26,209 nucleotides of DNA from a virus. The translations under genes and the position numbers were made by a program. Where the stretch lies: the UHGV virus genome UHGV-0185026. One strand, 5' to 3'. Position 1 is the first letter of the stretch. Every line of letters begins with the position of its first letter. The notes beneath the pieces were generated by a model. That model worked only from the letters and a program-made list of their open reading frames with translations. It did no database searches and was not told where the DNA came from. Positions 12,363 to 25,144 of this stretch are shown one piece after another.

Positions 12363-14267
12363 TTACTCAATTATTTTCAATGAATAATTATCTGGCGAAT
12401 AATACTCACCAACAATATATTCACTCTCACTGTATTTGGGATTTATTTCAGATGTTGCAAATATCAACTGATAATCATGTTCATAACGTGAGCACTCATC
12501 AATTATTATTTCCTGTAAATTGTGACTCCGTTCTTTTTCCATTCCACCATCGTCGATCCCATCTAACATCATAAATCTTGGAAGTCGCATTGAGTGGTTC
12601 TCTATACTTGCTGAAAGTAGTGCCAAATGGAATATATGCCTTAATACTACAGCTGAACTTTCAGAAAAGTTCTTACTACCATTCACATAAACGCTATTAT
12701 CAGTAAAACTAAACTCCACACTTTCAGGAGACATAAACTCTTTTTGCAAAGGCAAATCTTCTTGTAAAAGCTCTTGTGCTATTGAGCTCACTGAAGCATA
12801 AATTTTATCTTTAAGAACTTCCTCTTTTTCTTCATAAAGTTCAATAAGATCATCAAGTCTATTTTTTTCCGCCTGAAGTTCATCGCGACGCTCTTGAAGT
12901 TCATTAATAACAACAATAAGCTTCTTATCTTCATAAGCTCTTTTTATTTCTTCATCAAGCCGTCCAATTTCCCTATATATTTTACCTACAGCTAACTCTT
13001 GCGGTGAAGACCAATAGTGTGACTCTTTGAAATAATCCTGTTCAAGCCTTTTTAATTCACTCTCAGCTAAAGGAACATCTCGCTTTAATCTTACCAACTC
13101 TTCTTTTCTTCTATCCATTAATTGAAGAGATTCTTTGATTTGAAGAGTTAATTCATTTTTCATTCTTAATAACTGATTTTCAGCTTTATCATCTAATTGT
13201 TCCACTTTACATAGATGACAAACATGATCATTATGAGCCTTATCTATTTTGGAAAGACAACTAGGGCAAAAATCAAAATTCATACTATCAAATATAGCAC
13301 GCGTTTCTCCAGACTGTTCTAAGTTTTTTAGCCGCTCATTTAATTCTGATATAAACATATCAGAATCTGAAATTTCAAAATCCAAAGATTGGATTTTATC
13401 TTTTAGGGAAGATAATTTCCTTTTAGCTTCATTGAGTTCCTCCCTGATAGTACCCATTCGTTTTTCAGAATCAGCCCCTTCTTCATTAGTTATAATAGCT
13501 CTATTTGTTAGTTTTACATTCTCAATAGCTCTCAATTTATTTAGATGCTTTATTTTCTCATCAATACCTTGTAAATCTGGAGCCTGTCCAGATCTACCTA
13601 ATACAGTAAAGATACTTTTTAATTCAGTAACTTTCTTTGTTAGTTCGGTCTCAACATCTCTTAAAGAAAGTTGTGCATTGTACAACTCATCATTATAAAC
13701 ACCACATAAGTATCCACCTACCGTCTCACGGGTAAGAGCATTATCAAATCTGTCAAATCGAAAAATTGGACTATGTAACGACGGCTGATCTGCATACAAG
13801 ACACGTAAAATCTGATGCAATGTCAAATTAGAAGAACCAGCACCTTGTGCCAAGGGCATTGATAATGCATTAAAAATAGCTTGGGTGAAGCTAATTTTAC
13901 TCTCAGTTCTCTTGAATGGGTATAATTCCCATTCGTGTTCCCCAGCATTCAAAGCCTTATCCATCGCTCCCCAATAAATATAAAGAGGTCGCATTTGCTC
14001 AATAGATATCTCTCGTTTAAAGCATGCTTTCTCATTATTGAGAAGCACTTCAACGATTGTTCTAGTGCATTTCAAAGCCTGTGGTTTCCACCTGATATTT
14101 TCAGCTCCCAATGAAAATGCCAGCATATCCATTATTGTAGTTTTACCAGAACTATTTCGCCCACGAATAATGTTAACACCTTTGTGGAATTCACAATCAA
14201 ATGCACGATGTCCGTGTTGAAAAACTGTTAATCTGGTTACAATAAGAGTAGGCTTAATAAGTGTCAT
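12363..14267 (-). CDS. SMC/Rad50-like ABC ATPase with long coiled coil and central Cys4 motif (Lamassu LmuB / ABC-3C-type ATPase candidate)
   Basis: 634 aa. N-terminal Walker A (GRNSSGKTT), C-terminal Walker B/D-loop-like FMMLDGIDDGG, and about 300 residues of heptad-rich E/K/L sequence with CPSC-x13-CHLC near its middle. AT-rich composition. Confidence 0.65.
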   Translation of the reverse strand: MTLIKPTLIVTRLTVFQHGHRAFDCEFHKGVNIIRGRNSSGKTTIMDMLAFSLGAENIRWKPQALKCTRTIVEVLLNNEKACFKREISIEQMRPLYIYWGAMDKALNAGEHEWELYPFKRTESKISFTQAIFNALSMPLAQGAGSSNLTLHQILRVLYADQPSLHSPIFRFDRFDNALTRETVGGYLCGVYNDELYNAQLSLRDVETELTKKVTELKSIFTVLGRSGQAPDLQGIDEKIKHLNKLRAIENVKLTNRAIITNEEGADSEKRMGTIREELNEAKRKLSSLKDKIQSLDFEISDSDMFISELNERLKNLEQSGETRAIFDSMNFDFCPSCLSKIDKAHNDHVCHLCKVEQLDDKAENQLLRMKNELTLQIKESLQLMDRRKEELVRLKRDVPLAESELKRLEQDYFKESHYWSSPQELAVGKIYREIGRLDEEIKRAYEDKKLIVVINELQERRDELQAEKNRLDDLIELYEEKEEVLKDKIYASVSSIAQELLQEDLPLQKEFMSPESVEFSFTDNSVYVNGSKNFSESSAVVLRHIFHLALLSASIENHSMRLPRFMMLDGIDDGGMEKERSHNLQEIIIDECSRYEHDYQLIFATSEINPKYSESEYIVGEYYSPDNYSLKIIE

Positions 14268-14754
14268 ATCTATACTCCATAAGTTTAGTTCTAGCCTTCA
14301 ATCCATCAGGTCCAGTCAGATGAAATTTAGCCATCTTTTGTGTAATGAAAGATGAAAACGGTTCTTTGCGCTCTAAAAAAACGCCCATTTCTAAGGCTAG
14401 GTTCAGTGGTAATTGTTTATTTGTTCTTGAGACAAAACCATTGCTGAAATCATCAGAATCAATATAACCAGTCGCAAGCATACATTTTAGTGCTGCATCC
14501 TGTATTTGACGCATTTCCTTGAAAATAATCCTTGGACTCAATGGATCATGATATTCATTATGATGTAGTTTTGCTGTTTTTTTAATTTTAATAAATTCTC
14601 TCGGCATTTTCACTTCACTTAATAACGCAGGAAATAAAATGTAAAAATCCAATATTTTAAGCTTATCAATCTCAAGCCGATTTGTATTTTCCATAATTGC
14701 CATCATTCTAAATAGACAATGATAGGCATCATATGCTGGATGATAAACTAACAT
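14254..14754 (-). CDS. Hypothetical alpha-helical protein, translationally coupled partner of the SMC-like ATPase
   Basis: 166-aa ORF; its start overlaps the stop of the upstream gene (ATGTTAG) and its stop overlaps the ATPase start by 14 nt. No recognisable catalytic motif. Confidence 0.6.
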   Translation of the reverse strand: MLVYHPAYDAYHCLFRMMAIMENTNRLEIDKLKILDFYILFPALLSEVKMPREFIKIKKTAKLHHNEYHDPLSPRIIFKEMRQIQDAALKCMLATGYIDSDDFSNGFVSRTNKQLPLNLALEMGVFLERKEPFSSFITQKMAKFHLTGPDGLKARTKLMEYRYDTY

Positions 14755-15359
14755 TTATCCCACCTTATATAACAATTTCCGCCTAAAAAATACAACAGTC
14801 CCAAAAGATCCTTTTCGGATAAGTTTAACAAATTATCGCCCAACATTTCACTAATATTTTCTAATACCAATGAAATTTTTTCATCAACAATTACTCGGTC
14901 CTCATCCTTCTGAATAAGAGGTATAATTTTGAGCATAAAATCAGCATGAATTTTATCAAGAATAAACGCATATATTTCTTGTGCGGTTTTGGAAGATTGG
15001 CACTTCATTATCGCCTTGAGGGCTTGCTCTTTAAGAGCAGTTGCAAAGTAAATTAATTCAGTTCTATCACTATCAGTTAGCTTTGTAGCTAAATCTCTTA
15101 TATCTGGATTGGTATCCGAGGCTAAATAGTGCTTTAACTTATCACAAAAATCCTGCCCCCCCATAGTTCCATCTTCTTGAGAGAACTTTTGGTACAAACG
15201 CTCTAAAGTTCGATTACTACTACGAACTATATTGGTAATGTGGTTTGTTTGACTCCCTCCAACAATACTCCCATTTCTTACTCTATTACCTGATTGCTCC
15301 TGTTTACTAAACACACCAATCACTCCCTTAGTGAGAATTAGTCTGATCTCTACCGACAA
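14748..15359 (-). CDS. Hypothetical protein, second gene of the SMC-like ATPase operon; true start probably the in-frame GTG near 15314
   Basis: ORF of 203 codons from a TTG. An AAGGGAG ribosome-binding site overlaps the stop of the upstream small gene, about 8 nt before an in-frame GTG. The N-terminus carries an NGSIVGxxQTN motif. Confidence 0.55.
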   Translation of the reverse strand: MSVEIRLILTKGVIGVFSKQEQSGNRVRNGSIVGGSQTNHITNIVRSSNRTLERLYQKFSQEDGTMGGQDFCDKLKHYLASDTNPDIRDLATKLTDSDRTELIYFATALKEQALKAIMKCQSSKTAQEIYAFILDKIHADFMLKIIPLIQKDEDRVIVDEKISLVLENISEMLGDNLLNLSEKDLLGLLYFLGGNCYIRWDKC

Positions 15360-15886: not shown

Positions 15887-16468
15887 ATGAAAGTCAACAT
15901 AAAACAGATTGTTGGAAATTGGGAATTAGGTCTTGCGATGGATAAACACAGCATCCGCAGCATTCCCATTGGTTACGATGAGTGGGGACATATGCGGTTT
16001 GAGACGGAGCGTACTGAGGTAGGCGAATCTCTTTTCCAGCTTAAATACCGTGACGATTGGTCACAAGTTAAGCCTTTAGCCCAATGCCTAGCAGAGCATG
16101 CCTTTCCTCATTTCAGCAATGTCGGGTTTATCGTTCCAATGGCTGCATCTAATCAGCGTGCACGCCAGCCAGTGACCGAAATAGCTCAGGAACTAGCCAA
16201 ACTAGTTGGCAAACCATGCTTCGATGACCTCTTGTTGAAAGCCCCCGGCGGGGCATCGCTAAAGAACCTGAATACAAAAGAAGAGAAAATCACGGCGCTG
16301 GGTAATTCGTTCTCTGTTAATGACAGTATTGAGAATAATGGCAACTGGAATGTCCTTATCATTGACGACCTCTACCATACAGGCGCATCTATGGAGGCTG
16401 CTTGTGCTGTGCTAAACGATTATACTAAGGTTAGAAGCATTTATGTTGCAGCTTTGACTTGGAGATAG
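15887..16468 (+). CDS. Phosphoribosyltransferase (PRTase)-domain protein, ShosT-like candidate
   Basis: 193 aa with the PRPP-binding signature NVLIIDDLYHTGASMEAA near the C-terminus. First gene of a two-gene plus-strand module in the cargo island. Confidence 0.7.
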   Translation: MKVNIKQIVGNWELGLAMDKHSIRSIPIGYDEWGHMRFETERTEVGESLFQLKYRDDWSQVKPLAQCLAEHAFPHFSNVGFIVPMAASNQRARQPVTEIAQELAKLVGKPCFDDLLLKAPGGASLKNLNTKEEKITALGNSFSVNDSIENNGNWNVLIIDDLYHTGASMEAACAVLNDYTKVRSIYVAALTWR

Positions 16469-16470
16469 TG

Positions 16471-17028
16471 ATGACTACGGTATTTGTTGCTGGTTCAATA
16501 ACCATCAAAAACCTTGACACACTCATCGTGGATCGTCTGAAAAAAATTGTTAACTCGCGTTTTCGTATTGTAGTTGGTGATGCCAATGGTGTTGATTCAT
16601 CTGTTCAACGCGTATTGCTAGAACTTGGATGTGAAAAAGCCACAGTATTCAGTAGCTCAGAAAAACCGCGCAATAATCTTGGCTCATGGCCTGTACATGT
16701 AGTAAGTACTAGCCATGCAGCCGGCACTCGCGCGTTTTTCACTGCGAAAGATCTCAAAATGGCAGAAGAAGCCGATTATGGATTAATGGTTTGGGATACG
16801 AAGAGCACGGGTACTCTGAGTAACGTGATTGAGCTTCTTAAACGTAAAAAATACTCTGTCGTTTTTGTTAATAAATACAAAAAGTTCTTTATTATCAAAT
16901 CTCCAGAGCACCTTGACGCTTTGATTAACTGCATGTCACCAGCCTCTTTGGAAAAAGCTGATGAAAAGATCAGATTGCGCGAAAAAATCAACCAACTAAA
17001 AAACGAGCAAATCCAGATGTTTATGTGA
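16471..17028 (+). CDS. DprA/Smf-like (SLOG-type Rossmann) protein, ShosA-like candidate
   Basis: ATG two nucleotides after the PRTase stop, with a GGAGA ribosome-binding site. N-terminal VFVAGS...IVVGDANGVD pattern resembles the DprA Rossmann-fold motifs. Confidence 0.55.
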   Translation: MTTVFVAGSITIKNLDTLIVDRLKKIVNSRFRIVVGDANGVDSSVQRVLLELGCEKATVFSSSEKPRNNLGSWPVHVVSTSHAAGTRAFFTAKDLKMAEEADYGLMVWDTKSTGTLSNVIELLKRKKYSVVFVNKYKKFFIIKSPEHLDALINCMSPASLEKADEKIRLREKINQLKNEQIQMFM

Positions 17029-17117: not shown

Positions 17118-17351
17118 TTAATGCAGCCAGCTGTCGTCTTCCCACACCTTCTGCATAATTTTCATCACTTGTTTTCTTTCTTCGTCCAGTTGCAGTCCGG
17201 TCAGTTCCACACCGTTAGAGCTACCTTTTCGGATACGAATTACCGTTTTGGGATACAGGGGGCGCAGATTGCGGTAAAGCTCGGATTCAAGGGCGTCCAG
17301 GGTAGACTGGCTAATCTTCTGCTCTTTATCGATCATTATTTCAATGCGCAT
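17118..17351 (-). CDS. DinI-family protein (damage-inducible protein I-like)
   Basis: ORF 17118..17423; start placed at MRIEIMIDKEQ..., preceded by a GAGGTGA ribosome-binding site. The 77-aa product matches the DinI pattern (MRIE..., acidic C-terminus WEDDSWLH). Confidence 0.75.
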   Translation of the reverse strand: MRIEIMIDKEQKISQSTLDALESELYRNLRPLYPKTVIRIRKGSSNGVELTGLQLDEERKQVMKIMQKVWEDDSWLH

Positions 17352-17361
17352 AAAAGTCACC

Positions 17362-17550
17362 TCAACTGATGACATCCATTGAGCGGTTGTATTCGTGAGT
17401 TCTGATTTTTGCCATGAGTTCATCAGTCAATTCAGAAACCCACTGCAGGGCCAGCCCCTTCTCTTCATCACTACACTCACTAGCCGCTACAAGCTTAAGA
17501 AAAAAATCAATGCGCTGGAGCTTCAAAGACTCCAAAAAATAGTCCTGCAT
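17362..17550 (-). CDS. Small protein upstream of the DinI-like gene, possible Tum-like antirepressor
   Basis: 62-aa ORF with a strong AGGAGG ribosome-binding site, about 40 nt downstream of a LexA-box-like palindrome. Its position corresponds to the 186 tum operon downstream of A. Confidence 0.35.
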   Translation of the reverse strand: MQDYFLESLKLQRIDFFLKLVAASECSDEEKGLALQWVSELTDELMAKIRTHEYNRSMDVIS

Positions 17551-17590
17551 CTTTCCTCCTATGACACCAAAGCAATACTGTATACATAAC

Positions 17591-17610
17591 CACTGTTTAT
17601 ATTTACAGTA
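17591..17610. promoter_or_regulatory. LexA (SOS) box CACTGTTTATATTTACAGTA
   Basis: CTGT-N8-ACAG with an AT-rich spacer, matching the LexA consensus at about 17 of 20 positions. Located in the promoter region of the small-protein/DinI-like operon. Confidence 0.6.
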
Positions 17611-17702
17611 TATAATAATCTTACTGATGTAAAACGTTTTTTTACGCTCATCAGCCTGATATGCCTGGTATTATTAAGAGCACGAATTGTTAACCCGCGT
17701 AA

Positions 17703-20117
17703 TTAATACAGGTTTCGCCACTTATCATCTTCCTGCAAACGCTGGTTCCGATAGAAGATACGCAGGCCTGCTCCTGACGGAATACTGCCTCCGCGAAGCA
17801 GTAAATCGACCTCTTTCTCGCTGCCATCAAATCCCCTGGACTTCAGTTCATACACGAGCTGCAGTCGCTGATGGTCTGTAATTCGCTGTTTGTAGTCTTT
17901 ACGCCGTTTCGGTTTCACCAGGCGTAACCTTGCTGCCAGTTCCCGGCGCTCTTTTTTGCTCATACTGTGCAGGTAATCGTGCAACTCCTTGTCATCCATG
18001 CGGGTGATATCCGTTCTGGTATCTCCATCAGCTGATTTGTCTTTCCCTTGTTGGTACAAATTTTCAGCAAGGGGACAGTTATTGCCACGAGTCCAAGGGG
18101 CGCAAGCGCCCTGGTCGGCTGCCGCCTCCTGAACGTCAACGGCTTTACGAACCATTTTCCACTTCACTGCATGAGTGCAGATCTTGCCCTCTGCAATGGG
18201 TGACCAGATGCCATAAATACGAATGCCGTGATCGCCATAGGCGGTCGGCTCTTCGTTGATTTCATAAGCGGTTCTGATGAGGTGATATTTACGGGGAACC
18301 AGTACGCCGCCCTGCTTCATGATGTAGGTGGCAAAACAACCAGCATCAGCAGCAGCCAGAATGGCATCAAGACGCGGGTTATCCAGTACCGGCGCACCTG
18401 CTTTTTTGTCACCCTGTTGCCTTGCCGCCTGACCAGCCAGCAAGCGAAGTTCACGGTAAGCCTGACGCCCCGGAATACCAAAGAAGCGGAATTGCTGAAC
18501 ACGATGCAGAGACGCCCAGGCATTCACGTATTCAGCGTTATCACGCAGAGATTTACCCGTTTCCTTGCTGATCTCGCCAGCCAGACCACGACCGTCAATG
18601 TTCTTACTGATATATTTCGCGATGTAGCTTGTCGGCGTTCCTTTGCGCGGGTTAATCAACTCAGACTTAAAGCGCGGCCCAGTGTTATTGCCCAGCTCCT
18701 CGCGGTCTTCACGGATGGCAAACTTACGCAGTAATGCAGTGATGGCACGGCGGTCTTTTTTGCGCATGAAACACAACAGGTGCCAGTGAACTGTGCCATC
18801 ATGATGCGGCTCAGCCACCCGCACGCCATACCAGCGCAACCCGGCTTTGTGCATCGCCTTACGAAATGCAGCAAACATGCCGACCAGATAATCGCTGCTT
18901 TGTCTTACCGTCGCGTTTGTCCAGGTCGGGTTTGGTCTGCCGTTATTTAGCGTGGAATGGAAACGCGACGGACAGGTGATAGTGTAGAAAACGGCGCAGT
19001 CACCGCGCATTTCCGCGATAAGCTCCAGACCTTTAACACAGGCCATCATCTCATTGCGGCGATGCGCAGGGTTGCTGCTGCTGGCGTTTACCACATCCTC
19101 CATGTCCAGCGTGTCGCCGTCTTCGTTCACCAGTTCATGAGAACGGAAAAACTCCAGCGACTTACGGCGCTGCTCACGTTTATGCATCACGGCTTCATAG
19201 CTGACATAAGGAGATGCTTTTTTGCTGACCAGGCAAACAGCGCGCAACTGCTCTTCCCGCCATTCGCAACGCATCTTCCATAATTTCCGATACCACCAGT
19301 CGGCGCACAACATACGCGCCAGCGAACCCGGAATGAGTTCATAGGGCACGGGTTTACGGCGGTTTCTTTTCCGACGAAGTTTCTCAAACGCAGGCGGGAT
19401 AACATCCAGACGCAGGGTTTCCGCAGCCACCTTTTCCCATGTCTTGCGGATTTCTTCTGGCTTAACGTCATCGGTGGCGTACAAATCACCACAAGCGGCC
19501 TCAAGACACATGCTCATATGCGCTGCTACCAGGGTGGACAGGCGTTTCACCTGATCCTGGCTCATTTCAGGCAGGATCAGCAGCCCCTCCAGTCCTTGAT
19601 GGCTTGCCATAAAACGGAAAGAAACAGATAGCTGACTGTCACGTACACAATCCAGTCGCTCCAGACATGGCTTAATCGTCTCACGCAAATAGCGGGAATA
19701 AGCCTTTGGCCTGCCCAGGCTGCTGAAGTATTCGATACGTTGCATCAGCGGCTTGCTGATATGAGAAGGCTGGGCGCTGACATCTGCCAGAATGACCATG
19801 TCCGGGTTAAAACGCTGCTGCTCATGCGCCAGCTTTGCCCGGCTAATGAGCTTATCCTGCTCCATTTCGCGCTGGACAGGATCACGGGATTCATTAAAGA
19901 AATAACGCTCCCAGACCTGCTCACTCAGTGCCTCGCGGCGCAGTTGTTCCTGCTCGTTATCGGCAGCGTACAGAGTGATCAGGTTTGAAAGTGCAGACTC
20001 CGGCGCAACTTCCGCCGGATCCAGATAAGGGTTAATGGCCTTTTTCGGGCCGTTCCATGAAAATGCTGCGGCAGCCTCGTTAAAGCCGCTAGAGTTGCTC
20101 ATATCGTCATGACTCAT
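17703..20117 (-). CDS. A: Replication initiation endonuclease gpA (rolling-circle initiator)
   Basis: 804-aa ORF containing [12 protein letters not shown] and HHDGTVHWH-type motifs characteristic of P2 gpA-family initiators. Confidence 0.9.
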
Positions 20118-20971
20118 ACACGCACCTCGTACACAGCAAAACTATCCACGCCACGCGAAGGATCAAATCCCATCCAGCAGCGCGACCCGGAAACAGCAAT
20201 GATTTCTGTTGCAGATTTACTCTCGCCAGCTGACACGCCGATGCTGCGTTTTGCCTTGATGTAGTGGTGAGTGAAATTGCGATACAGCGAACGGATCAGG
20301 GATGTGTCACTGTTAGAAACAATGACCGGATGACCTTCTGATGATCGATATTCAAGAACGGATGCCAGGTGATACTGGTCATCTTCAGTGAAGCCGTCAG
20401 TGTGATAACCGGAAAACGTGCCGTCATACGGCGGATCGCAATACACCACATCCCCCGCCTTCAACATCGCCAGCGTTTCATCAAAGCTGGCGCAGATAAA
20501 CGTTGCTCGCTGGGCCTTTTCTGCAAATGCGCGAATTTCTTTTTCAGGGAAATACGGATTTTTATAATTACCGTAGGGAATGTTGAAATGCCCGCTCTTG
20601 TTATAGCGACATAAACCACGGTAACCGTGACGATTGAGATACAGGAAATATACCGCTTTCATGAAATCAGTAATTTCAGTTGAGTAATTAAACTCCTGCC
20701 TTATGTTGTAATAAGCTAGATCACTGTTTGCTTCCTCAAACAAAGTTCTGGTCCGCGATATAAACGCCTCGCAATCAGCGGCAATCTTTTTATAGAGGTT
20801 GATTAAATCAGGATTAATATCCGCAACCAGATAGCTGGGGTAATCCGTCTCCATCATCACAGCACAGGAACCCGCGAAAGGTTCAACCAGTCGCGGGCCA
20901 GCAGGTAGGTATTTTTTCAGTTCGGACATAATTGCGGTTTTATTTCCCGCCCATTTCAGGATGGTGCTCAT
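20114..20971 (-). CDS. dam: DNA adenine methyltransferase (Dam family, GATC-type)
   Basis: ORF 20114..21031; start placed at [11 protein letters not shown]. Contains [33 protein letters not shown] and DPPY motifs, near colinear with E. coli Dam. Its stop overlaps the A start (ATGA). Confidence 0.85.
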
Positions 20972-21195
20972 ACAGCACCTCCGTTGTAATGTTTGCCTTT
21001 CAGCTCTGCGATTTCCTGACAGGTAATGCAAAGCTGCACTCCAGGAATGGCACGGCGGCGTGCTGGCGGAATTGGTGCTTCACATTCAATGCAAAGCACG
21101 CGAGACACGCCCGGTGTTTTGGCACGGGCAGCACGGATATGGCGCTGGCGTTCTTCTTCAACGCGCTGCTGTACGAGATCCATTGCATCAGCCAT
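20968..21195 (-). CDS. TraR/DksA-family C4 zinc-finger protein
   Basis: 75 aa with CIECEAPIP...CITCQ (Cys4); its stop overlaps the Dam start. Confidence 0.7.
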   Translation of the reverse strand: MADAMDLVQQRVEEERQRHIRAARAKTPGVSRVLCIECEAPIPPARRRAIPGVQLCITCQEIAELKGKHYNGGAV

Positions 21196-23147: not shown

Positions 23148-23717
23148 ATGAATTTGGAGAAAGGCGGACGAGGCGCTATAGAGCGCATGGTAGAAGCTTA
23201 TGGATTCAAGACTCGACAGGCGTTGTGCGATCATTTAGGAATCTCTAAAAGTACACTCGCCACACGCTACATGCGTGACTCATTCCCAGCAGAATGGGTA
23301 ATCCAGTGCGCCCTTGAAACAGGCACCTCGCTTAATTGGCTCACAACCGGGCATGGTTCAAAGCAAACTTCAGGTAATACAAATACTATGGAAGTTGCTA
23401 AATATGTATTATCTGATGGGGCCTTGTGTGAAGACGGTTTTTATATTTTCGATAGAGAATTTCTACCGTCGACATTCAAGAATCTTTTTGTAATCACAGA
23501 TAATAATTCTGAATTTATTTGTGATAAGGAATTTGATGATATACGTGATGGTAAATGGGTAATAAGTATTGATGGCGAAATAACGATCCGTGACATTACT
23601 CGTTTACCCGGTGGAAGAATCTTCGTCGAGGGTGGAAACAGAGCCTTCGAATGCAAGATAGAAGACATTGAAATAATTGGTAAAATTATAAGTTTAACAG
23701 TCAAGTATGTTAAATAG
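23148..23717 (+). CDS. cI: CI-like immunity repressor (186 CI family)
   Basis: ORF 23142..23717; ATG at 23148 preceded by a GGAG ribosome-binding site. N-terminal helix-turn-helix (LCDHLGISKSTLATRYMR) and the ALETGTSLNWLTTGHG segment match the 186 CI pattern. Confidence 0.8.
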   Translation: MNLEKGGRGAIERMVEAYGFKTRQALCDHLGISKSTLATRYMRDSFPAEWVIQCALETGTSLNWLTTGHGSKQTSGNTNTMEVAKYVLSDGALCEDGFYIFDREFLPSTFKNLFVITDNNSEFICDKEFDDIRDGKWVISIDGEITIRDITRLPGGRIFVEGGNRAFECKIEDIEIIGKIISLTVKYVK

Positions 23718-23924: not shown

Positions 23925-24112
23925 CTTTTGCTTTTATATCTGCGCCTAAAATAAAAATGAGCCACAGGTTAACCGCAAAAGTTACATGCTCACATAGCAA
24001 AAAGAATAGCCTACTTCATTATGGCTTCAGTGAGATGTATGGTCGCAGGATTTCATACATTGACACTGGTTATACATACAGTAAAAATGCTCTCTATTGG
24101 AGGGCATTTTTT

Positions 24113-25144
24113 ATGGCTGTACGAAAACTCACCACAGGAAAATGGCTTTGCGAATGTTACCCCGCCGGACGTAGTGGGCGTCGTGTGCGTAAACAATTCG
24201 CCACCAAAGGCGAAGCACTGGCTTTTGAGCGTCACACGATGGAAGAAACCGAAGCAAAGCCCTGGCTGGGTGAATCAGTGGATCGTCGAACACTGAAAGA
24301 CGTGGTTGAGCTATGGTTCAAACTACATGGTAAATCACTGACTGCTGGGCAGCATGTCTATGACAAATTGCTGCTGATGGTTGACGCTCTGGGCAATCCC
24401 CTTGCAACTGATCTCACATCTAAAATGTTTGCCCACTATCGAGATAAACGCCTGACAGGTGAGATCTACTTCAGCGAGAAATGGAAGAAAGGAGCAAGCC
24501 CGGTCACCATTAACCTGGAGCAAAGCTATCTAAGTAGTGTTTTTAGCGAACTATCCCGCCTGGGCGAATGGTCGTATCCGAACCCACTGGAGAACATGCG
24601 AAAATTCACCATCGCAGAAAAAGAGATGGCATGGCTTACCCATGAGCAGATTGTTGAATTGCTGGCTGATTGCAAACGACAGGACCCAATTCTGGCACTG
24701 GTAGTTAAGATATGCTTAAGCACAGGCGCACGTTGGCGTGAAGCCGTAAATCTTACCCGCTCACAGGTGACCAAATACCGAATTACCTTTGTAAGAACGA
24801 AGGGGAAGAAAAACAGAAGCATCCCTATCAGTAAAGAGCTTTACGAAGAGATCATGGCGCTTGATGGGTTCAATTTCTTTACAGACTGCTATTTTCAATT
24901 TTTATCCGTGATGGAAAAAACGTCTATCGTGCTCCCTCGCGGTCAACTGACACACGTTCTGCGCCATACGTTTGCGGCGCACTTCATGATGTCGGGTGGA
25001 AATATCCTGGCCTTACAAAAAATTCTCGGGCATCACGATATAAAAATGACTATGCGTTACGCACATCTGGCACCGGATCACCTGGAAACTGCATTACGGT
25101 TTAATCCGCTGGCAACACTACCAACATCAATAGCAAGTTTTTGA
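24113..25144 (+). CDS. int: Tyrosine integrase (P2/186 Int family)
   Basis: ORF 23957..25144; start placed at MAVRKLTTGKW with a GGAGGG ribosome-binding site. C-terminal catalytic region HVLRHTFAAHFMMSGGNILALQKILGHHDIKMTMRYAHL. Confidence 0.9.
   Translation: MAVRKLTTGKWLCECYPAGRSGRRVRKQFATKGEALAFERHTMEETEAKPWLGESVDRRTLKDVVELWFKLHGKSLTAGQHVYDKLLLMVDALGNPLATDLTSKMFAHYRDKRLTGEIYFSEKWKKGASPVTINLEQSYLSSVFSELSRLGEWSYPNPLENMRKFTIAEKEMAWLTHEQIVELLADCKRQDPILALVVKICLSTGARWREAVNLTRSQVTKYRITFVRTKGKKNRSIPISKELYEEIMALDGFNFFTDCYFQFLSVMEKTSIVLPRGQLTHVLRHTFAAHFMMSGGNILALQKILGHHDIKMTMRYAHLAPDHLETALRFNPLATLPTSIASF

Follow-up and report, generated by a model that had tools for sequence, protein, structure and literature searches.

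Does the short operon that follows the replication gene A of a P2/186-like prophage switch that prophage into lytic growth when the DNA of the host is damaged, and if so, which of its two products acts on the repressor? The DNA analysed here (UHGV-0185026, 26,209 nt, referred to as the window) comes from an E. coli prophage of the P2/186-like (Peduoviridae) group. On its minus strand, downstream of gene A, lie a gene for a 62-aa protein and a gene for a 77-aa DinI-like protein, separated from A by a 152-nt intergenic region (Table 1). A reading made from the sequence alone had placed a LexA-controlled operon here and had likened it to the SOS-inducible tum operon of phage 186.

Layout of the operon

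The two-gene minus-strand operon of the sequence-only reading is borne out: the 62-aa ORF is preceded by AGGAGG, the second product belongs to the DinI family (Pfam PF06183), and the Phage_GPA gene, after which the operon had been said to follow directly, ends at 17703 on the same strand. The interval given for the module, 17118-17620, does hold both genes and the LexA boxes, but it leaves out the -35 hexamer at 17633..17628. The order of gene A followed by the operon is common to phage 186, PSP3, Fels-2, and the P2-like prophage of E. coli HS (HS prophage).

Table 1. Features of the operon and of the genes discussed with it; positions are those of the window.
Feature	Position	Strand	Basis
Replication gene A	17703..20117	-	Pfam Phage_GPA, E 8.4e-128; immediately upstream of the operon
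Putative -35 hexamer TTTACA of the SOS promoter	17628..17633	-	Layout as in annotated 186 p95
Putative -10 hexamer TACTGT, inside LexA box 1	17605..17610	-	Identical to the annotated -10 of 186 p95
Predicted LexA box 1, TACTGTAAATATAAACAGTG	17591..17610	-	Includes CTGT-N8-ACAG; half-sites invariant in 7 phages
Predicted LexA box 2, CAGTGGTTATGTATACAGTA	17576..17595	-	5-nt overlap with box 1; colicin-type second box
Shine-Dalgarno AGGAGG of the 62-aa gene	17555..17560	-	5 nt upstream of the ATG
tumA-type gene, 62 aa, predicted two-helix hairpin, presumed CI antirepressor	17362..17550	-	Profile homology to 186 Tum
tumB-type gene, 77-aa DinI-like protein	17118..17351	-	Pfam DinI, E 6.6e-23
186-type CI immunity repressor, presumed target of the 62-aa protein	23148..23717	+	Phage_CI_repr and Phage_CI_C

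The DinI-like gene starts 10 nt past the TGA stop of the 62-aa gene, its likely start being the ATG at 17351 (77 aa, MRIEI...). A 101-aa ORF from 17423 was set aside as the DinI-like gene, being an upstream extension that overlaps the 62-aa gene. Also rejected was a terminator-like regulatory hairpin at the junction of the two genes (17373..17356), as the stability of the RNA equals that of shuffled sequences (z = -0.04).

The operator and promoter

The window contains a single CTGT-N8-ACAG, CTGTTTATATTTACAG, at 17593-17608. Taken by itself this bare motif is common by chance, with 0.37 expected per window and at least one in 35 of 100 shuffles. It is the fuller context that is significant. 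A 20-mer compared with the LexA consensus TACTGTATATATATACAGTA has 3 mismatches, for which the shuffles give an expectation of 0, and the 35-nt composite TACTGT-N8-ACAGTGG-N8-ACAGTA, present on the minus strand as TACTGTAAATATAAACAGTGGTTATGTATACAGTA (17610..17576), likewise has an expectation of 0 in the shuffles, even when 2 mismatches are tolerated. The composite corresponds to two 20-nt LexA boxes that are offset by 15 nt, overlap by 5 nt, and lie downstream of the -35 hexamer, which is the layout of a colicin-type double operator. The near-consensus operator noticed earlier is indeed there, but as predicted from its sequence it is an overlapping double LexA box of the colicin type rather than a single one. 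One half-site of box 2 departs from the consensus (CAC instead of CAG, + strand). By analogy, LexA would occupy both boxes, with the occupancy of box 2 taken from colicin operators.

The putative promoter consists of TTTACA, a spacer of 17 nt, and TACTGT. Its relation to box 1 is that seen in the p95 promoter of phage 186, annotated as TTGCCA, 18 nt, and TACTGT, with the -10 element within the LexA box. According to the annotation of the 186 record, p95 is experimentally defined, and the promoter in the window is assigned by analogy with it. A generic sigma-70 scan found no promoter at the operon because the -10 element matches just 3 of 6 positions.

Promoters of seven phages were aligned: the window, E. 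coli HS, Fels-2, 813R9, two Klebsiella phages, and SopEPhi. The segments TTTTACA, TACTGTA, CAGTGG, and TACAGT are invariant in all seven, and the box spacers and the flanks diverge while the half-sites stay constant. This pattern reads as a phylogenetic footprint of the -35 element and of both LexA boxes. In phage 186, PSP3, ESSI-2, and one Yersinia phage the corresponding position holds a single LexA box.

The DinI-like protein

The 77-aa protein matches Pfam DinI with 81.3 bits, well above the cut-off of 24.2. Against the equivalog model of the chromosomal E. coli DinI (NCBIfam PRK10597) it scores 42.7 bits, below the cut-off of 111, so that by these models it is a phage DinI-like protein and not an orthologue of host DinI. 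It is identical to the E. coli HS protein (77/77), 78% identical to PSP3 TumB, and 41% identical to residues 71-146 of 186 Tum. The 186 record also annotates nested Tum products from internal starts, down to a DinI-like piece of 76 aa, which are said to 'modulate SOS induction'. Together, the DinI-like character of residues 71-146 and the nested products indicate that in the 146-aa Tum of phage 186 an N-terminal module is fused to a DinI-like one.

The 62-aa protein as the N-terminal half of Tum

The 62-aa protein had appeared too short to be a Tum protein, a doubt that does not survive comparison with the 186 fusion. The DinI-like half is the C-terminal part of 186 Tum, and since the two halves are separate here, the length of the 62-aa antirepressor is explained. 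An alignment to 186 Tum, which had been proposed as a check, does yield similarity, although only when profiles are used. Pairwise BLASTP gave no alignment of the 62-aa protein with either 186 Tum or PSP3 TumA, nor of PSP3 TumA with 186 Tum. Pairwise methods are too weak for such 60-aa proteins, and the homology to Tum therefore rests on profiles.

HMMER, run exhaustively on 1.84 billion representatives, gave 66 relatives, down to 36% identity, and 35 diverse members were used for a family profile. In a single comparison by hmmsearch, this profile matches residues 6-48 of 186 Tum with 34.7 bits (E 7.6e-13). HHalign of the 62-aa family against the 186 Tum-N family gives a probability of 96.7% (E 3.4e-10), with an ungapped alignment of 4-43 to 4-43 in which the conserved Cys26 and an (L/I)A(L/I) motif are in register. 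A first HHalign with close relatives only (>80% identical) had given a probability of 14.5% (E 0.0019); the success of the later one was due to the inclusion of diverse representatives, close relatives alone being insufficient. Against PSP3 TumA the 62-aa profile reaches E 0.002 only. Within the family, residues D3, E7, R13, I14, C26, A34, W37, E40, and L41 are nearly invariant. The profile comparisons thus identify the 62-aa protein as a homologue of the N-terminal (non-DinI) half of 186 Tum.

Pfam, NCBIfam, and PADLOC have no family for this protein, and in PHROGs it corresponds only to phrog_698, labelled 'unknown function'. The AlphaFold2 model is a confident hairpin of two helices (pLDDT 86.7) whose turn contains Cys26. 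No relative emerged when PDB sequences were searched with a profile, and Foldseek of the model against viral models gave no match at E <= 0.001; the predicted fold is too simple to be informative.

The N-domain of the type found in phage 186 (L001:7083-7523) also occurs by itself in many genomes, as a 'Tum protein' of 63-78 aa (for example, P0153, P0156, P0169, P0184, and P0192). Fusion and split forms are therefore both found within the 186-type subfamily.

Split and fused forms of tum

The p95-tum locus of phage 186 resembles the window in several ways: it follows gene A on the same strand, its LexA box overlies a TACTGT -10 element, its phage has a 186-type CI, and it encodes a homologous antirepressor N-domain together with a DinI-like moiety. 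It differs in that the moieties are fused in the 146-aa protein with internal starts, the LexA box is single, and orf97 comes next; in the window there are two genes behind a double box, and orf97 is absent. Identity is only about 20% between the N-domains and 33% between the CI proteins. The likeness to 186 that was first proposed thus holds for a tum-type, LexA-controlled module, but not for a separate DinI-like ORF in 186, where that part is the C-terminal half of Tum.

Closer in organisation are PSP3 and Fels-2, in which tumA/tumB and STM2728/STM2726.1, respectively, form a two-gene split tum like that of the window. In PSP3, tumA is annotated as 'similar to 5' end of 186 tum; UV induction of prophage' and tumB as DinI-like. 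PSP3 TumA is very divergent from the 62-aa protein and its LexA box is single. The Fels-2 protein STM2728 is 98.4% identical to the 62-aa protein and the double box is present, but the CI of Fels-2 as a whole shares only about 43% identity with that of the window. Lemire et al. (2011, PMC3121763) described the second half of Tum as DinI-like and noted that tum is split by a stop codon in Fels-2 and PSP3; they also cited, as a personal communication and thus second-hand, that the PSP3 antirepressor is the upstream gene. A paper on the Salmonella SOS regulon (PMC8072944) does not have the Fels-2 gene among those it lists. A split tumA/tumB is already known from PSP3, Fels-2, and the HS prophage, and the module in the window is of this kind.

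The Gifsy phages have a comparable arrangement, in which one LexA-repressed promoter drives a small antirepressor (GfoA/GftA) together with a DinI homologue, and no cleavage of the repressor takes place (PMC3121763). There, unlike in the window, dinI comes first and the repressor belongs to another family. ESSI-2 (L005:7971-8190) and ESSI2_ev015 (L012:7001-7213) have a tumA homologue, 37-49% identical, behind a single LexA box and with no annotated DinI-like gene after it. The record of ESSI-2 leaves its tumA homologue unannotated.

Evidence from the HS prophage

The nearest relative with genetic data is the HS prophage, whose TumA is identical to that of the window at 61 of 62 positions (T51S) and whose CI is identical at 188 of 189. 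The two share the attachment site beside rcdA, and RcdA in the host flank is 99% identical, but the cargo between the DinI-like gene and the portal gene Q differs. In HS, deletion of 'tum' abolished both the lysis and the virion foci induced by mitomycin C, and a lexA(Ind-) allele likewise abolished both (Phollow preprint, PMC11195241). The primers used for the 'tum' deletion have perfect matches in the window, at 17548-17562 and 17342-17364; the in-frame deletion joins the start and stop codons of the ORF that corresponds to 17550..17362. This phenotype does not formally separate tumA from the DinI-like product, because an in-frame tumA deletion could disturb the translation of the tightly linked DinI-like gene.

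The start ATG of CI in the window was adopted from the HS annotation. The protein contains Phage_CI_repr (E 2.8e-33) and Phage_CI_C (E 2.5e-27) and aligns with 186 CI over its full length, and its domain content assigns it to the 186 CI family. For phage 186 itself, biochemical work credited to Shearwin 1998 showed that Tum binds CI and blocks its binding to the operator; for the subfamily of the window the evidence is genetic and comes from the HS prophage and PSP3.

Induction of the prophage

Together, these observations make it highly probable, at roughly 0.9, that the operon is an SOS induction module of a P2/186-like prophage in its 'split tum' form, and that the 62-aa product acts on CI. 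In an undamaged cell, LexA bound to the two overlapping operators would cover the -10 element and the start region of the putative sigma-70 promoter, and the operon would stay silent. After DNA damage, activated RecA would promote self-cleavage of LexA and the operon would be transcribed. The 62-aa hairpin would then bind the 186-type CI and release the lytic promoter, so that lytic growth could begin without cleavage of the repressor. The DinI-like product would probably modulate RecA filaments, and hence the strength or duration of the SOS response, rather than act on CI. The requirement for tumA and for a cleavable LexA is taken from the literature on near-identical and related phages; we infer the direct binding of TumA to CI, the delayed timing discussed below, and the role of the DinI-like protein. 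The earlier suggestion that the prophage is induced through an antirepressor rather than by repressor cleavage accords with the homology to Tum-N, with a 186-type CI that has no Peptidase_S24 match above threshold, and with the HS deletion (PMC11195241).

In principle the DinI-like protein could be the true SOS effector, and the 62-aa ORF a leader, or a coupling ORF, that does not act on CI. The gap of 10 nt between the genes means that loss of the first could affect the second, and in the 186 annotation a modulation of SOS induction is ascribed to the shortened, DinI-like forms of Tum. We give this reading little credence. The 62-aa protein is homologous to precisely the non-DinI half of 186 Tum, its family is conserved with residues that hardly vary, and in PSP3 the antirepressor is reportedly the upstream gene (PMC3121763). 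Moreover, deletions of the dinI homologues in Gifsy phages had no effect on induction (PMC3121763), and phages of the ESSI-2 type keep a tumA homologue and a LexA box with no annotated DinI gene adjacent.

A lambda-style induction, in which RecA would stimulate self-cleavage of CI and the LexA-controlled operon would be accessory SOS cargo, deserves still less weight. Its one point of support is a faint match of the C-terminal part of CI to Peptidase_S24 (E 0.008), which at 16.3 bits is under the Pfam cut-off of 23.3 and no stretch of which passes on its own; the protein is of the 186 family, and in the HS prophage, with a CI that is 99% identical, induction requires tum (PMC11195241). Least credible of all is that the LexA-like sequence is a chance AT-rich palindrome in an intergenic region and that the operon is constitutive or otherwise controlled. 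That would suit the bare motif, present in 35% of shuffles, but not the composite and the 3-mismatch 20-mer, which are absent from every shuffle, nor half-sites that stay fixed in seven phages while the spacers drift. A LexA box also stands at the equivalent position in 186, PSP3, ESSI-2, and the Yersinia phage, and the composite follows the pattern of bacteriocin SOS operators.

Double boxes in bacteriocin promoters

When the Fels-2 version of the operator was used as a 38-nt query, it matched more than 1000 plasmids, mostly small and mobilizable, at about 92% over 37 nt. Two of the matches were inspected, one in Y. pestis pPCP1 and one in a Klebsiella plasmid. In pPCP1 the composite is directly upstream of the pesticin gene, in the Klebsiella plasmid it is upstream of a gene for a cloacin-like bacteriocin (a colicin-like tRNase), and in both the boxes are offset by 15 nt as in the window. 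The SOS promoters of colicins, pesticin, and cloacin thus share with the window the form TACTGT-N8-(A/C)CAGTGG-N8-(T)ACAGTA. They differ from it in the gene downstream, which encodes a bacteriocin there and a phage antirepressor here, and in the flanking sequence, which is dissimilar.

Colicin promoters have two SOS boxes that bind two LexA dimers, and they are induced late (PMC4482635); much of this delay, however, is caused in colicin systems by extra repressors, IscR and AsnC. By analogy, the double box of the window would probably repress more tightly than one box and fire later, lysis then following only on sustained damage. On the same grounds, this subfamily of prophages may reasonably be expected to have a higher damage threshold.

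Pairing of TumA with CI

TumA and CI were compared among 11 phages (loci L002, L004, and L009-L012, among others, against the window CI at 23148-23717); the pairs are not independent, and p-values are not meaningful. The identity of TumA tracks that of the N-terminal HTH domain of CI (Spearman rho 0.78) and not that of the C-terminal domain (rho 0.17). In phage 813R9, TumA is identical to that of the window and CI merely 53% identical. Among phages with a window-type TumA (84-100% identical), CI is 65-79% identical to that of the window in its N-terminal domain and 24-41% in its C-terminal domain, and the CI/apl switch regions align poorly outside the promoter hexamers. This pattern suggests domain-level mosaicism of CI and a contact of TumA with the N-terminal DNA-binding domain. 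It is conceivable, at somewhat worse than even odds, that TumA of the Fels-2/HS type is a broad-spectrum antirepressor that recognises the conserved N-terminal domain of many CI proteins with dissimilar C-terminal domains and operators. A single SOS pulse could then cross-induce several heteroimmune P2-like prophages within one cell, with the double operator, borrowed from colicins, setting a high damage threshold.

The function of the module will be familiar to specialists on 186 and P2, and yet the 62-aa gene is still a 'hypothetical protein' in RefSeq; the practical value of an evidence-backed annotation as a TumA-type antirepressor is to fill that gap. Similar sequence is found in 1125 of 5426 complete E. 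coli genomes. For a prophage type very common in E. coli, Salmonella, and Klebsiella, the module decides whether the host lyses after DNA damage, such as that caused by quinolones or mitomycin, and the double operator and the covariation of TumA with the DNA-binding domain of CI bear on the thresholds of phage induction and on cross-talk.

Neighbouring genes

Between the portal gene Q and the SOS operon, three minus-strand genes (12363-15359) form a defence system of the Lamassu/ABC-3C type. They encode a 634-aa SMC-like ATPase (PADLOC LmuB, E 4.5e-43), a 166-aa middle component, MC5 (Pfam, E 2e-57), and a protein of 203 aa that carries ABC-3C CTD9 (E 5e-30). These genes occupy the variable-cargo position of P2-like phages, and related phages carry different cargo there. 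On the plus strand, two overlapping genes (15887-17028) run towards the DinI-like gene. The product of the first, a protein of 193 aa, is weakly similar to ShosT/PsyrT phosphoribosyltransferase toxins (PADLOC, E 1.3e-8), and that of the second, 189 aa long, has no family match; the pair may be a two-gene defence or toxin-antitoxin system like Shosta/PsyrTA.

Upstream of gene A, on the minus strand, are genes for a Dam-type N6-adenine methyltransferase (20114-21031) and a TraR/DksA zinc-finger protein (20968-21195), which are likewise placed in Fels-2 and in the HS prophage. [quoted passage not shown] It adjoins the prophage integrase gene (23957-25144), and the chromosomal site is therefore the same as that of the HS P2-like prophage.
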